Part shown: positions 5,977 to 31,500 of the stretch, piece by piece
Numbering within the stretch: position 1 is the first letter of the stretch
Layout of the letters: every line of letters begins with the position of its first letter
Virus record (IMG/VR): IMGVR_UViG_3300022206_000004
Location: 1-54,852 of that record
Direction: 5' to 3' (one strand)
DNA: 54,852 nt
Source of the DNA: a virus
Lineage: Duplodnaviria; Caudoviricetes
Made by a program: the position numbers and the translations under genes
The notes under the pieces: model-generated
What the model saw: only the letters and a program-made list of their open reading frames with translations
Database searches by the model: none
Told to the model about the DNA's origin: nothing

Positions 5977-8900
5977 TTACTCCTCAGCCCTGCCACGATC
6001 CGCTGTCGTGGAGTGTCCTATTAGAACCATCCTCGCATTCTTACTCCGGTTCCTTACCCTGAACTTAGTTGTCTTTTGACCAGAGAAGACCTTCAGGTTC
6101 CTCTGAAAAACACCAAACAGTTTACCCAACCACGTCATAGACCTTTTACCTATGTTTTGCGGTGTCACGCTACCGTCCGGGTACTCGTCTAGCTCTATCA
6201 TACCTCCTGCCGCTGCTGACTCAGCCCACACGGAGAGTAGTCTCTGTCTCATTCCGTCAGACACACTAATAAACATATCCCTGGTGACTGCGTAGGCATC
6301 TACGGCTACAGTGTTACCGGAGTCGTCAAGGTCTGTGATCCCGTCATAGAGTCTAAAGAACTTACCAGTGTCAAATGCACCGCCAACAGTGTAGTACCTG
6401 TCGTTAATTACTGGCAGTATACAACTAATCTCCGTACCATATTCATAGATACCGTACCACATAGACGGGAAGTGCATCACTATAACCTTGGTTGGTGTGG
6501 TAGCTGATGCACCAGAGTAGACAATCCACTGTGCTGTCTGCGACTCATGGTCGTATGTTCCGTATGTTTGATCAAGGTATGCAGGGTTTATGTAGTCTTC
6601 GTGCAGCGGATCGAAGAAACTATCTATGTCAGGTGCAGATATTTTCCAAATTCTACTGTTGTCGAAAACCCATATACCGTCAGCAAAAAACCATGTAACT
6701 ACGTTCTTGATCTTCTCATCAACAAGTATGCCAGATTCTACCGTAACTATACTGTTTACTGCGCTGCAGCCTATGGTACCTGACAATCTGAGTCTTCCAA
6801 AATTTGATGGCGTACTACCCTTGATCATCCATATCTCAGTGTCTGCGAATACCATTGCCTCATTATACAAGGACACTGCTGCCACTAATGGTCTCTCACC
6901 AAAGTATATGTACCCGCTGTCCAGTCCGTTCCACACAGTGGGTAGGTTGGCTGCGGAAAACCTTACTGCGTTCTCTTCGCCACTGGGAGCGATCTGCCAC
7001 ACCCTGCGTTTGAAAGCCAGCACACCTTTTGAAGGCAGTATGGCTTCGCCTATCGGTATACCCCGTATTCTATAAAGTGTCGTTGGGTCTGATAGGGTTG
7101 CATCCCACTCAAAAATATACCAGTACATCGGGGAGGTATCACCACCCACGGTGACTGGCTTCTCGTTTTCCTTACCGGGATCAAGCCAGGTAATAGTTCC
7201 CTTCTGACCAAAGCCTGCTGTGCCTGCTAGGGTACCGTCCTCGAAGCTTGATACCGCAGTCTCAGCGGCTCCTGCGTTGTGATAGTAAACAGCGTCTACC
7301 TGTGCGTTCTGTGTGTTTTGTTCATCAGATGCAGGATAAAATTCAATACCAGAAAGCCTATACGGAGAGCCAACAAACAGTCTATAAGACGTAGTAGCCC
7401 CGTTAAGGACTGCACCCTGTGCCTCAACGTCGTTATTAACGTAGGCAGTATAGTCCTTATACTTTGTGCCATCATACACATAGCACCCGGTGACGAATGT
7501 CTTTGACCCATCCCAAAGATTGCCTACCGGGTTCCACGGAGAGTACAGGCCGACCTCCTGTATATCCACTGAGGCATCTAAGTCGTTGGTGTATCCAAAT
7601 TTGTATACGTATCCTGGGATACCCTCAAGAGATGTTGGTAGCTCTGTTGAGGGGGCTGTTTCCCATGAAATTGTGTTCTTGCCTGCCGTGTTAAGAGATG
7701 TTCCCTCACGAATCCAATGGACATGGGCGTTCCCATCCCAACTAGCTTCCTTCTGGCAGTTAAAATAGCAAACTACCTGCACGTTTTCCGTGGTCCAGGT
7801 GTCATCCCTGGCTATCTCAGTCCAGTCACCTGGTTCTCCCTCATACGCCACCAGTGAATTACTAATCCTTGTAAATCTATAATACCAGGTTAATTCTCCG
7901 TTGCTTTGCGCTATCTCAGTCCAGCCCTCGTCCTGTCTAACACCGCCAATACGTATGTCGGAGTAGTGTCTTCTGGTACTAGTTGTCCATTGCCTACCAA
8001 CATATCCATCATTATTAGAGACAACCATTCCCTTAACGTAAAACCTGAAGTCGTTGTACCCAGAGGGGGTGTTCGGTGTGTCGGTCCCAACCGTCACATG
8101 ACAGACAATATCAAAGTCGCCAACTAGGTCTACCTTGCCCTGTGAGTATATTTGTGCTGAGGTGGAGTCTGTGTCTGGAACAAATACTAAGTCATTATCC
8201 TGAGAGAGCTTCCCGCTGGCATCTGACTCGGTCCACTTACTGGTGTCTATGACCGTACCTTCAAACTCCTCTCTAAGCTGAGAGTCCTCGGTACCATCGG
8301 TCATTGCGCCACAGCCGTTAGCTGCCATTATCTGTGACCACCCGGACCCGTTCCAGAAATACCCCACCAGGACAGCATTGTTGCTATTGGTATTTCCTAC
8401 TGTAGCCATGACATCAGTTACTGGCATCTCAGATATTGCGTACCAGAAGTCATTCCCAGCATCAAAACTATTCAGGGGCATTGAGGTTGCTGTGTCGCCA
8501 TCTGTCACTTCATCGTAGTAATTAATATAATTTCCAACGGTCTCGTCGAAGTAGAAGATACCTGTTGGCTTATGTTCCTCTCCTAACCATATAATAAAAT
8601 CTTCACCAGTAGCTACAACTATGGCGTTAGCCACGTTAGCCCACTGTGCTATCTCACAGCCTGCAGTAAGATCGTACATTTCTGACCAGGTGATTGAATT
8701 GGGGGGAAGCGCACTGCCCTTCATTATGCGCTCTCCGTTGGTGGAGTCGTAGGTGTGAGCCAGCAGGCAATCAGTACTCCCGTCTAGTGTACGGAATTGT
8801 ATAGCACTCTTAAAGCGCAAACCTGTGGCTACAGCACTTGCGGTTAGGGCTGTCATGCCCTTACGCTGTTTCCACCCATACCCAGGCGTGAGATTAAGGG

Positions 8901-18900: not shown

Positions 18901-19231
18901 CCGTTATCTCAGCCATCAGTACCTGAATGTTCTCATTAATGTCAACACCGATATGACCGGAGACCTTTTTCTCCTTGACCTCAGTGAGATTCAGAATCTG
19001 AGTGGCTAGGTTGTTTGCACGTTCGATATGACCCAACTCTAGGGCTTCAACAAGTATAGCCCTCTTTATCTGCCAAGAGGCTGAGTTAAGAACCTTCCGC
19101 AGTTGAGTCGCTGAGGTAGCAGTGACTACCAGGTCCAAGACATCACCAAGTATCTCCTTGACACGGAGTCTCTCGACCTGCCTGTGTGTCTGCATACCAC
19201 CATCTTTTCGTTGCTTCTTAGGCTGTCTCAC
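18758..19231 (-). CDS. Probable terminase small subunit
   Basis: 157-aa helical protein directly upstream of, and overlapping, terL. Confidence 0.55.
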   Translation of the reverse strand: MRQPKKQRKDGGMQTHRQVERLRVKEILGDVLDLVVTATSATQLRKVLNSASWQIKRAILVEALELGHIERANNLATQILNLTEVKEKKVSGHIGVDINENIQVLMAEITDVPFEVLEERARQLRERRLIGGSSDRGGDEAPGPVEVLVVEDGEVSQ

Positions 19232-29597: not shown

Positions 29598-29744
29598 CTA
29601 TGTCTCGTCGTCAAAATAAATAACTAGCTTACCTGTGTCCTTGTTGACAAATATGTTGACCACCTTATAGTGTCCAGGTGGAGGTTCAGTTGGGATGTCC
29701 ACCCTCACTAGCTTACCCGTTTCCGGGTCTATTGTCCATGCCAT
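29598..29744 (-). CDS. Small protein (48 aa) sharing the C-terminal motif of 29355..29588
   Basis: Hand translation MAWTIDPETGKLVRVDIPTEPPPGHYKVVNIFVNKDTGKLVIYFDDET. Confidence 0.65.
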   Translation of the reverse strand: MAWTIDPETGKLVRVDIPTEPPPGHYKVVNIFVNKDTGKLVIYFDDET

Positions 29745-29747
29745 AGA

Positions 29748-30020
29748 TCACTCGTCTTCTAGGTCAATATCTTCCCCGAAGATCATTCGCATCATAGCTT
29801 GTTCCATGGCTTCGTCTAGCATAGGGTCTGGCTCGTCCGGGCCGAAATTCAGGTCGTCTGGGAAACCCCTACCCTTAAGGGACTCTGCAGACTTACGTAC
29901 CGCTCTCATTCTCCGGGCATCCGCTATGTCAAAAATTTCTGCTTCTCTTCCGCTCCTCGACCTTGAGCCTACGGGCTTCCTTCTTCGATAATCTGTCAGG
30001 TCGAAAAGCTTTGCAGCCAT
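29748..30020 (-). CDS. Hypothetical protein
   Basis: 90 aa; AGGAG RBS. Confidence 0.6.
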   Translation of the reverse strand: MAAKLFDLTDYRRRKPVGSRSRSGREAEIFDIADARRMRAVRKSAESLKGRGFPDDLNFGPDEPDPMLDEAMEQAMMRMIFGEDIDLEDE

Positions 30021-30119
30021 TACATAGCTCCTTGTCTAACTGTATACGTGGGTTGCACTTGGCTATGCACGAACCCTCCATACACTCAGTACACTCAGTG
30101 CAGTCAATCGCACAGCAAA

Positions 30120-30410
30120 TCATAATACCCCCATTGATATAAGCTCTGCCTTGGGTCCCTCATTACACTTGCAGCGCAGTTCTACACACTTATCACAGTT
30201 ACATGGGTGCTTCTTGATGTCCTCTTCCTTCTTCTCGTCCCACTCCGTGATGCCTAACATGTCGGTTAGCCTGTCAATTAACAGGGCTGCACCATCATGC
30301 ACGTCTAGGGTGCCGTACTCAGATTCCGATAGGGAGGTGGATACACTAAGCTCTCCATCAGTGAATTTTAGGACCTTGGTGTGTCCCATGTCAATTAGTT
30401 CACACTTCAT
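30120..30410 (-). CDS. Hypothetical protein
   Basis: 96 aa, AGGAGG RBS, C-terminal Cys cluster. Confidence 0.6.
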   Translation of the reverse strand: MKCELIDMGHTKVLKFTDGELSVSTSLSESEYGTLDVHDGAALLIDRLTDMLGITEWDEKKEEDIKKHPCNCDKCVELRCKCNEGPKAELISMGVL

Positions 30411-30437
30411 GCTAACCTCCTATGTGTAATTTTACCT

Positions 30438-30511
30438 TGGGGTGCGGGAAGGGACTTGCACCCTTATCTCTTCGGGCCACAACCGAAGCGCTTTACTTAA
30501 GCTACCCTCAC
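30438..30511 (-). tRNA. tRNA-His (GUG)
   Basis: Acceptor GTGAGGG/CCCGCAC, anticodon arm CTTCGG-TTGTGGC-CCGAAG, T arm AAGGG-TGCAAGT-CCCTT, C73 and encoded CCA. Confidence 0.85.
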
Positions 30512-30514
30512 AGT

Positions 30515-30601
30515 TGGTGGGGTAGCTAGGAATCGAACCTAGTGAGCTATAATAGCACCTGATTTACAGTCAGGCTCCGCTCCATATGGATATACTACCC
30601 C
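30515..30601 (-). tRNA. tRNA-Tyr (GUA)
   Basis: Acceptor GGGGTAG/CTACCCC, anticodon arm CCTGA-CTGTAAA-TCAGG, long variable arm, T arm CTAGG-TTCGATT-CCTAG, ACCA end. Confidence 0.9.
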
Positions 30602-30679
30602 TGTGGTGTGGTAGGGTATCTCTTCTGGATACCCCGGAGTTTCTCCACAATAATAATGGTAGTGATATTTTTCACGCAT
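30539..30679 (-). CDS. Putative Tyr/His-rich leader peptide (46 aa) overlapping tRNA-Tyr
   Basis: GAGGT SD 7 nt before the ATG; MREKYHYHYYCGETPGYPEEIPYHTTGVVYPYGAEPDCKSGAIIAH*. Confidence 0.45.
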   Translation of the reverse strand: MREKYHYHYYCGETPGYPEEIPYHTTGVVYPYGAEPDCKSGAIIAH

Positions 30680-30691
30680 AATCCATACCTC

Positions 30692-30769
30692 TGGAGCCGT
30701 AGGTCAGAATCGAACTGACAACCTTAGGTTTACAAGACCCATGCTCTGCCTAGTTAGAGCTACTACGGC
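30692..30769 (-). tRNA. tRNA-Thr (UGU)
   Basis: Acceptor GCCGTAG/CTACGGC, anticodon arm TGGGT-CTTGTAA-ACCTA, T arm GTCAG-TTCGATT-CTGAC, TCCA end. Confidence 0.92.
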
Positions 30770-30771
30770 AT

Positions 30772-30936
30772 CTACTTGTTTAACCTTGTTGGTCCCCCAA
30801 CCCTAGCTGGGGCCTCATATTTGCCTTTCTTCTTACGCTTGCGCTCTTCCTCAAGCCGTCTACGAATCTCTTCTAGCATTCGCTGTCTACCAGTCTGAGT
30901 CTGTTGTGGAACTTGTGTGTTTGCTGTGGTAGTCAT
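30772..30936 (-). CDS. Small basic protein (54 aa), first gene of the leftward block
   Basis: Hand translation MTTTANTQVPQQTQTGRQRMLEEIRRRLEEERKRKKKG...; AGGAG RBS. Confidence 0.55.
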   Translation of the reverse strand: MTTTANTQVPQQTQTGRQRMLEEIRRRLEEERKRKKKGKYEAPARVGGPTRLNK

Positions 30937-30947
30937 ATACATACTCC

Positions 30948-31100
30948 TAAAAAATAATAAAAAATTTTTTTGGGCAAGACGCTTAATGGGACCCTATCTC
31001 TATATATATATGGGTGGTAGGCGGGGTCAAGGTGGGGGGTGGAGGGGGGTGTACTACCTTTTTATTATACACACATGCGTGTGTGTGCGTAGCCCTCACA
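30948..31100. other. Low-complexity A/T-tract and G-tract segment at the strand switch; candidate genome terminus or pac region
   Basis: AAAAATTTTTTT, (TA)n and four G-runs in a non-coding gap between divergent blocks. Confidence 0.4.
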
Positions 31101-31471
31101 GCGCCCACTGCTGCATACGCTCACCTCATAAGCGTTTATACGATGGTAACGGGTCAGGGTCACATGGGTCAATGGGACATAAACCCGCATGGTTACTGGG
31201 TGTGGGAGAGTGTGCCACTCTCAACTAGAAAGGGCCTGCCGCAGCAAGCCCGATGGGTATTTCCTTATCCTTTGTCCTTTTGCCCTATTCTAGCTCCATT
31301 ATAGCATATTTCCTGAGTATTTACCGTCACTTAAAGCTATCCTAAGTAGCGCTGAGGATCACACTTGATCACACTCATCCTATCCTTTATATAATAGGGG
31401 AAATTCTCAATCACCGTAGATGCACTGATAGAGCGGGTTTACAACTATTTTACTATTGGTGCATTATTTTG

Positions 31472-31500
31472 TTGACTATCGTTCCCGGTTTTGGGATACT
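31472..31500 (+). promoter_or_regulatory. Candidate early sigma70 promoter
   Basis: TTGACT-17 nt-GATACT with TG extended -10 and an AT-rich upstream element. Confidence 0.55.

Follow-up and report, generated by a model that had tools for sequence, protein, structure and literature searches.

A Tyr/His-rich mini-ORF leading into tRNA-Tyr in a phage tRNA cluster, a candidate leader-peptide sensor

We analysed a stretch of viral DNA of 54,852 nt (the window), which is the whole of the IMG/VR virus record IMGVR_UViG_3300022206_000004, with an estimated completeness of 87%. On its minus strand lies a small tRNA cluster, in which tRNA-Thr, tRNA-Tyr and tRNA-His follow one another. In the spacer between tRNA-Thr and tRNA-Tyr begins a short open reading frame (ORF), here called the leader, which has a Shine-Dalgarno (SD) sequence of its own, carries six consecutive Tyr and His codons and reads into tRNA-Tyr. 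The viral contig L002 served as the second genome for comparison. The features of the leader and its cluster are:

30692..30769, minus strand: tRNA-Thr (anticodon TGT) with an encoded CCA, its 3' end abutting the leader SD (ARAGORN; Rfam, 60.1 bits)
30687..30691, minus strand: Shine-Dalgarno-like GAGGT ('SD2'), 7 nt ahead of the ATG (from the sequence; tRNA-Thr 3' end, SD and ATG aligned in both genomes)
30539..30679, minus strand: leader ORF of 46 codons plus TAG, MREKYHYHYY... (from the ORF listing; only the first ~16 codons matched in L002)
30650..30667, minus strand: six consecutive Tyr/His codons, Y H Y H Y Y (the sole run of at least five in the window)
30515..30601, minus strand: tRNA-Tyr (anticodon GTA), class II, with an encoded CCA (ARAGORN; Rfam agrees)
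30438..30511, minus strand: tRNA-His (anticodon GTG), 3 nt past tRNA-Tyr (ARAGORN; Rfam, 44.6 bits)

The GAGGT (30691-30687) comes immediately after the CCA of tRNA-Thr, the ATG stands at 30679-30677, and after CGT GAA AAA the codons 5-10 of the leader read TAT CAC TAC CAT TAT TAT. The spacer from tRNA-Thr to tRNA-Tyr measures 90 nt, of which 48 nt separate the Tyr/His run from tRNA-Tyr, with tRNA-His next, and it contains a GGGTATC/GATACCC hairpin and two CTACC words. A preliminary description of this locus had listed the SD, its 7-nt spacing, the ATG, the YHYHYY run with tRNA-Tyr and tRNA-His behind it, the hairpin and the CTACC words, and all of these were confirmed on the minus strand. Its further statement, that the frame passes through most of tRNA-Tyr as far as the T arm, holds for the window: the frame goes 63 nt into tRNA-Tyr, and the stop codon TAG (30541-30539) lies inside the T arm.

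The Tyr/His run in the window is more than chance would give. No other run of at least five Tyr/His codons occurs in any frame on either strand, Tyr and His together account for 6% of the codons in the long ORFs of the window, and first-order Markov simulation of the window produced a run of six or more in 1 of 300 cases. An SD with an in-frame ATG at most 10 codons upstream, without an intervening stop, was found at 0.8% of random positions and at 1.8% of real window positions; by the same rule, an SD precedes the first start codon in 20 of the window's 42 long ORFs. The open frame through a tRNA is not significant alone, and a chance frame also crosses tRNA-Thr in L002. Among the 58 distinct tRNAs of a first set of loci, an SD-ATG ORF that starts at most 100 nt upstream and enters the tRNA was present only at the two tRNA-Tyr leaders.

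Eight loci were used as controls, taken from T5, Stenotrophomonas phage Moby, Aeromonas phage Asswx_1, Streptomyces phage Muntaha, Bacillus phage Mater and the metagenomic L076, L027 and L055. Only 3 of their 132 tRNAs have an SD-led ORF that reads into the tRNA, and the longest cognate run among these ORFs is two codons. Two of the three precede a tRNA-Arg(CCT), in Muntaha (L238) at 19151-19189 with 3 Arg among 11 codons and in L076 at 7745-7858 with 6 Arg among 36. The Arg-rich ORF of Muntaha was considered as a leader of tRNA-Arg(CCT) and dropped, only one of its three Arg codons being AGG; no AGG is found among the Arg codons of the L076 ORF.

To place the leader in a wider context, we compared the window with L002, which was located via the neighbouring AAA-ATPase (83% protein identity to the window) as the sole viral contig in that search, and which appears as L192 in another scan. 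The whole L002 record has six tRNAs, with Tyr, Pro, His, Ile and Thr on the same strand and Asn further on. Just 5' of its tRNA-Tyr stand AAGGAG, 6 nt, an ATG and then MWPNPIPYYHYHYPEFPG; this leader has 18 codons, its TAG falls within the first 7 nt of tRNA-Tyr, and its YYHYHY is the only Tyr/His run of at least five codons in the 21-kb L002 locus. The two genomes are considerably diverged, with a pS of 0.68 and a dS of 1.76 for the ATPase gene, a pS of 0.56 and a dS of 1.04 for an 88-aa (amino-acid) gene, 73-74% identity for the three tRNAs common to both, and 68 of 92 alignment columns identical for tRNA-Tyr. Despite this divergence, L002 keeps the SD, the ATG, the six Tyr/His codons, the small GGA...UCC hairpin and, at the acceptor strand, the ...CCGGGGTA junction. 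From run to junction the two genomes differ in length by exactly 3 nt, so the frame is preserved across this stretch. The runs themselves, in their best register, differ by just two C/T changes, both at third codon positions, and they are retained while the N-terminal part of the leader is wholly different.

Concerning the L002 cluster itself, ARAGORN puts the 5' end of its tRNA-Tyr at 8588, 3 nt within a G run that pairs with the 3' CTACCCC; judging from this pairing and from a length of 87 nt as in the window, we take the true 5' end to be 8591. In the spacer between its tRNA-Ile and tRNA-Thr (8237-8272), a 12-nt unit, CACGGAAGTCAC, is repeated two and a half times, while the corresponding spacer of a third contig, L198, is 1 nt. 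Since promoter, leader and tRNAs of L198 are ~99% identical to those of L002 (its flanks differ by 10-40%), we counted L198 as part of the L002 lineage and not as an independent case.

The starts of the leader have been exchanged between the two genomes, which brings in two features further upstream:

30772..30936, minus strand: 54-aa gene MTTTANTQ...RVGGPTRLNK, with the start region 'SD1' in the window (from the ORF listing and the L002 comparison)
30995..31035, minus strand: promoter-like block with which the operon opens, TTGACC and then a TA repeat (conserved with L002; the consensus scanner made no call)

The 54-aa gene has 41% identity between the window and L002 at equal length, with its C-terminal 10 residues invariant, and on this comparison it is a real gene; its product is a basic protein, and the gene is always co-transcribed with the tRNA cluster. 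It lies before tRNA-Thr in the window and after tRNA-Thr in L002 (8149-7985). In the window, the block at 30995..31035, which we infer to be the promoter, leads with the 5' untranslated region (5' UTR) and SD1 into the 54-aa gene, and tRNA-Thr-CCA, SD2 and ATG lead into the leader. In L002, the homologous promoter, 5' UTR and SD1 lead into the leader, which is there the first frame of the operon, and SD2 after tRNA-Thr leads into the 54-aa gene. Because SD1 and SD2 are swapped, the leader in each genome begins at a start region which, in the other genome, belongs to a bona fide gene. The swap could be explained without selection, by crossover within the microhomology of SD and ATG; both start regions have been retained since the rearrangement. 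Since the leader was retained at dS >1 after this rearrangement, we argue for selection, and the comparison supports the view that the SD-led mini-ORF and its Tyr/His run are linked to tRNA-Tyr and have been conserved under selection.

Within the window's own lineage, runs from about 10 studies, chiefly of sediment and marine metagenomes, have a nearly identical 5-kb stretch. The DNA contig of run X6 has a single variant in the leader, 30644 T>C, which is synonymous (Gly) and keeps the hairpin pair as G.U. The window-type leader is unchanged in contigs of the metatranscriptome libraries X18 (29604-30671) and X19 (30482-31042). Run X12 has no cover over 30505-30690, with contig breaks at 30695 and 30505, from which we drew no inference; its contig carries a diverged tRNA-His in other surroundings.

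Further searches returned few relatives. The exact 46-aa leader product is called on 4 contigs of the protein collection, and among 5.8 billion clustered proteins it has no homologue other than itself. In the ATPase alignment, which covered the best 80 of 159 viral loci and the best 80 of 328 metagenome loci, all matches listed have at most 50% identity except L002 and the 1,082-nt fragment L133, and among the 59 tRNAs in these matches a tRNA-Tyr is found in L002 only; closer ATPase relatives, at 63-91% identity, are present in the protein collection (P0001-P0017). Alignment of the 88-aa neighbour gene returned the L002 contig only, the pattern of the tRNA-Tyr acceptor stem returned L192 and L198 only, and the junction pattern returned 7 loci, of which 5 are unrelated and without a tRNA. 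The six-codon run before a CTGTAAA loop occurs at 61 loci in viral contigs, and at tRNA-Tyr only in L192 and L198. The exact 3' word of tRNA-Thr gave no locus in the viral contigs.

We then turned to phages outside this lineage by scanning 2.9 million viral contigs for at least five Tyr/His codons placed 33-63 nt upstream of CTGTAAA, which in turn had to be followed by a GTTCGA T loop. Three loci were obtained: L192, L198 and L231. The last comes from a complete jumbo phage of 331,944 nt (G003), with terminal repeats, 38% G+C and 48 tRNA-model hits, which is unrelated to the window and whose L231 region gave only tRNA-sized matches among GenBank phages. Its 85-nt spacer, from tRNA-Phe to a tandem tRNA-Tyr pair, has AAGGAG, 10 nt and an ATG encoding MEGEYYYYYRNMRR, with the stop TGA at nt 9-11 of tRNA-Tyr; an in-frame SD and ATG would arise in this locus by chance at ~1%. 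In the stretches examined, an AAGGAG-led mini-ORF reads into 3 of the 41 ARAGORN tRNAs of the jumbo phage (Tyr, Lys and Phe). The one at tRNA-Lys(TTT), MKRKRKVRKQTYTCL, ends inside the tRNA and has 4 Lys among 14 codons (p 0.04). Judged from these sequences, the codon-run leader recurs convergently in an unrelated phage. Within L231 (G003, ~148.6-156.5 kb), the spacers are ~100 nt, AT precedes the first G of most tRNAs, and the frame from the ATG so formed stops at tRNA nt 8-10, usually at U-A-G; a tRNA-Tyr with anticodon ATA and two odd tRNAs whose anticodons have 2 nt are among the ARAGORN calls there.

It is conceivable that the leader is chance or vestigial matter, either the remnant of an earlier gene or debris left when the tRNA cluster was rearranged, which has travelled with tRNA-Tyr. 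The tRNA cluster has indeed been rearranged between the relatives, a collapsed tRNA-like helix and a tandem ACCAC duplication adjoin the leader, so that such debris does exist here, and frames open through tRNAs do occur by chance. We nevertheless consider this explanation improbable: neutral sequence would not survive a dS above 1, a run of this length arose in so few of the Markov simulations, the control tRNAs are without such an element, and an analogous one stands in an unrelated phage.

A different possibility is that the run works as a signal in the RNA or the DNA and that the ORF is a by-product. The run, an A/U-rich repeat, would then be a single-stranded 5' leader that serves RNase E or RNase P, a site bound by a protein, or a -10-like element (TATTAT, CATTAT, TACTAT) 7-14 nt before the tRNA or the minihelix described below. 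All differences between the runs of the window and L002 are C/T transitions, so that the pyrimidine-A-pyrimidine pattern is kept as well as the codons are, and the L002 run resembles a slipped TATCAT repeat. Tyr/His runs inevitably hold -10-like hexamers, the last of which ends 7-8 nt before the tRNA in L231, and the L002 leader is predicted to be unstructured (z -0.5). This account leaves unexplained, however, why a good SD together with an in-frame ATG is found in three upstream contexts, a combination expected in each at ~1-2% by chance, and why the frame is kept from run to junction. Moreover, a sigma-70-type scan of the tRNA strand, which does not cover phage-specific promoters, detected no promoter spanning the run in any of the three (window, L002, L231), the -35 positions being poor. 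On balance we regard such a signal as rather unlikely.

Translation of the leader could also have been selected for a purpose other than sensing tRNA, such as ribosome cover against RNases or Rho, the timing of RNase P, a non-stop fragment left by RNase P cleavage or a Tyr/His-rich micropeptide. The translation signals are the same as those for a sensor, annotated small ORFs without cognate runs lie between or overlap tRNAs in T5, and to judge from the sequences, an RNase P cut at the 5' end of the tRNA would remove the stop codon in all three phages. What translation for another purpose fails to explain is that the codons match the adjoining tRNAs in two unrelated phages and that the run is kept while the N-terminal part differs completely; the lack of any homologue of the peptide but itself in the clustered proteins is a further difficulty. 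We give this explanation, too, only a modest chance.

The spacer of the window holds additional elements between the run and tRNA-Tyr:

30636..30646, minus strand: small hairpin GGAG-AAA-CUCC, directly 5' of the GGGG of the minihelix (from folds; L002 has GGA...UCC at the same place)
30609..30635, minus strand: acceptor-stem-like minihelix of 8 bp with a 7-nt loop, then ACCA, 27 nt in all (fold -11.3 kcal/mol, z -3.0)
30602..30608, minus strand: linker CACCACA, 7 nt, from the minihelix ACCA to tRNA-Tyr (from the sequence)

The minihelix is similar in its two strands to the acceptor strands of tRNA-Tyr, 5' and 3', and its 7th pair shows a compensatory change from G-C to U-A. Its site is occupied in L002 by the real tRNA-Tyr, and the minihelix exists only in the window's lineage; where the TAG of L002 stands, the window has TAT, and a tandem ACCAC duplication and then the real tRNA-Tyr follow. 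The minihelix is probably a collapsed copy of tRNA-Tyr. ARAGORN and Rfam found no tRNA in 30602-30691, and the spacer was rejected as a tRNA or tRNA pseudogene for want of a match to a tRNA model. As a whole, the 90-nt spacer folds into an outer stem and three hairpins (-24.2 kcal/mol, z -2.6).

These features bear on the version of the switch first put forward in the preliminary description, in which ribosomes run through most of tRNA-Tyr in the off state and CTACC pairs with the GGTAG of the acceptor strand. In the window, 63 nt of tRNA-Tyr are indeed read by the frame, and CTACC does occur twice. The frame reads so far because a 34-nt insertion and the change from TAG to TAT removed the stop. 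The long read-through is therefore specific to the window and not conserved, as the leaders of L002, L198 and L231 stop within the first 4-11 nt of the tRNA, and ribosomes covering most of the tRNA cannot be taken as a general feature. Minimum-energy and centroid folds of the window keep tRNA-Tyr as a cloverleaf with the CTACC words unpaired, so the alternative pairing is not predicted, and the L002 leader has no CTACC. In this exact form the proposal is very improbable.

To see where the element belongs, we compared it with known systems, beginning with the leader-peptide attenuators of amino-acid operons (hisL, pheL, thrL, trpL and the pheM of pheST). Like these, it has an SD-led ORF of 14-20 codons and a codon run for the amino acid at stake, and the position of the ribosome is the presumed signal. 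Unlike these, it has no terminator/antiterminator pair and no U tract, its setting is a phage, the leader is followed by a tRNA gene and not by a gene for biosynthesis or for a synthetase, and the ORF ends within the acceptor strand. A published account concerns pheL (PMC3082878). A ribosome-binding site and start of its own is present in the window (GAGGT, 7 nt, ATG), in L002 (AAGGAG, 6 nt) and in L231 (AAGGAG, 10 nt), and so is a run of regulatory codons (YHYHYY, YYHYHY and YYYYY, respectively). No terminator-like site was found on the tRNA strand from leader to tRNA in any of the three. Because there is no terminator, this is not classical attenuation, and hairpins of the classical attenuator, none of which appeared in the folds, were dropped. 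With two of the three defining features, the element is a variant of the codon-run leader principle outside the attenuator family.

In the translational attenuation of ermC and cat/cmlA, the pause depends on the drug and the nascent peptide and frees an SD. As there, a ribosome paused on a short leader would decide the fold of the RNA downstream, but what sets the pause here would be the amount of cognate tRNA available, and what it frees would be a tRNA that can then be processed. T-box riboswitches resemble the element as proposed in that an RNA leader acts in cis and the state of one particular tRNA is read by pairing of codon and anticodon. The element differs from them in that it has no T-box fold, recognition would be via the ribosome, and the target is a tRNA gene and not a synthetase or transporter gene; an Rfam scan of 29800-31500 with E up to 1 gave the three tRNAs and nothing else, so that neither stem I with its specifier loop nor an antiterminator or antisequestrator was seen.

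Phage T5 (NC_005859) offers two further comparisons. SD-led short ORFs lie between its tRNA genes as well, and T5.057 (27 aa) ends 6 nt inside tRNA-Met, but there is no enrichment of cognate codons there (0 Met among 26 codons) and no ORF before the T5 tRNA-Tyr. The window, L002 and L231 all share this T5-type layout of small ORFs, a class without a defined function, so the likeness is descriptive only. Minihelices are substrates of RNase P and of the CCA enzyme, and the 27-nt acceptor-type helix of the window with its 3' ACCA between tRNA genes is in this respect like RNA1, RNA2 and RNA3 of T5; unlike these, it is much smaller, is confined to the window's lineage and is not known to be stable or processed.

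From the anatomy, conservation, recurrence and rarity observed above, we infer, as a tentative but preferred reading, that the leader may be translated and may couple the capacity to decode Tyr and His codons to the folding or processing of the adjoining tRNA. It is established that leader peptides with codon runs signal the supply of charged tRNA by where the ribosome stands, that the footprint of a bacterial ribosome extends ~12-15 nt to the 3' side of its A site, and that RNase P requires a folded acceptor/T domain. The distance from the run to G1 of the acceptor helix is 8 nt in L231 and 11 nt in L002, and in the window the run lies 14 nt from the minihelix. In such a scheme, the tRNAs would be made within a longer transcript, and a ribosome would load on the leader before the RNase P cut. 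With ample charged tRNA-Tyr and tRNA-His, the ribosome would enter the 5' acceptor strand and hold the helix unfolded and unprocessed; in the window variant, an unpaused ribosome would pass the minihelix and then enter tRNA-Tyr. If Tyr/His decoding fell through codon demand, starvation or cleavage by a host defence nuclease, the ribosome would pause on the run with its front edge at or before the 5' end of the tRNA, and tRNA-Tyr and tRNA-His would fold and mature. The net effect would be negative feedback of phage tRNA output on the decoding capacity which those tRNAs supply.

What survives of the tRNA-sensing switch as first proposed is thus the conserved, SD-led Tyr/His leader, as seen in L002, in the swap of start regions and in L231, while read-through, CTACC pairing and classical attenuation do not. 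The check suggested along with it, whether the codon run covaries with the identity of the downstream tRNAs, came out suggestively positive. The L002 leader has 5 Pro codons and 1 Asn codon, and L002 also has tRNA-Pro, tRNA-Asn, tRNA-Ile and tRNA-Thr; the tRNAs of L002 itself are cognate to 12 of the 17 leader codons (post hoc binomial p 7e-5). Together with the Tyr run and the Lys-rich ORF of the jumbo phage, these hints would fit a sensor, with the reservation that they too are post hoc.

A number of observations weigh against this sensor reading. The independent lineages with a leader are two, plus the near-identical sister L198, and the codon statistics are post hoc. In L231, only the SD, the in-frame ATG and the position of the stop count as independent, because the search pattern had demanded the run and the tRNA. 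The Ile codon of the L002 leader is ATA, which a GAT anticodon does not read, and the mini-ORF before tRNA-Phe(GAA) in the jumbo phage has 2 Phe among 19 codons, which is not significant, and it was dropped as a cognate leader. A search of 185,579 prokaryote species genomes for the six-codon run with the CTGTAAA loop and a T loop gave 2 loci, neither of them a tRNA. Although the tRNA-Tyr of T5 is known to be important against a defence system, T5 has no leader of this kind before it. As for the RNA, attenuator-type alternative hairpins are absent, with only a weak hairpin of 3-4 bp and, in the window, the minihelix; in the predicted fold of the window, some of the SD is taken up in the outer stem by pairing with the ACC/CCA words that follow the minihelix; and the 48 nt from the run to the real tRNA-Tyr give the window a geometry unlike that of its relatives. 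A strong effect on processing is not obvious either, as a ribosome stays only briefly at a stop codon. The contigs from RNA libraries do not allow strand, ends or ribosomes to be read, DNA may be present in them, and they show natural stability only.

A bolder and more doubtful extension of the sensor reading is that the leader would be a ribosome-read sensor through which the loss of Tyr, His or Lys decoding, such as host defences that cleave tRNAs could bring about, would release the maturation of the phage's replacement tRNAs; this would make it an inducible counter-defence and the first leader-peptide sensor to control tRNA genes. As targets of retron-Eco7 PtuAB and of PrrC, tRNA-Tyr and tRNA-Lys have been reported, together with their rescue by phage tRNAs (PMC11555353), which provides context for the defence idea and not evidence. 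The preliminary description knew of no described example, and our literature search found none: in the full-text literature searched, which excludes older work on T5, no leader peptide before tRNA genes is reported.

The tRNA cluster is housed in an operon of small genes, with the 54-aa gene upstream and a 96-aa gene with a strong SD downstream. Within the 96-aa gene, 3' of tRNA-His, the segment 30123-30226 is strain-variable, and the contig of runs X6 and X12 has 87 other letters in place of 102 nt. Upstream of the operon, a conserved non-coding block (31030-31251, minus strand) contains a terminator-like hairpin at 31251-31232, with 88% identity to L002 8891-8933, and its part 31030-31241 is covered by contigs from two RNA libraries; the block may encode a small RNA or form the 3' end of the transcription unit that lies upstream. 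The phage itself is tailed, with genes for a terminase, a portal, an internal virion protein, a DnaB-type helicase and an integrase. Its large terminase has <40% identity to that of any GenBank phage, and blastn against GenBank phages gave no match for the 0.9-kb region (distant mode) or for 24 kb (megablast). The integrase-family gene at 48611-49765 matches PHROG integration/excision families, and the phage may be temperate; a single scan of the genome collection, aimed at the leader pattern only, found no prophage copy.

The element comprises ~60 nt plus one tRNA and comes in three natural versions with different geometry, which makes it directly testable. If the sensor reading is true, tRNA genes would be autoregulated through the ribosome, and the puzzling small ORFs in phage tRNA clusters would gain a rationale. 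The expression of phage tRNAs would, moreover, be tied to the depletion of particular host tRNAs, which is now a known defence strategy.

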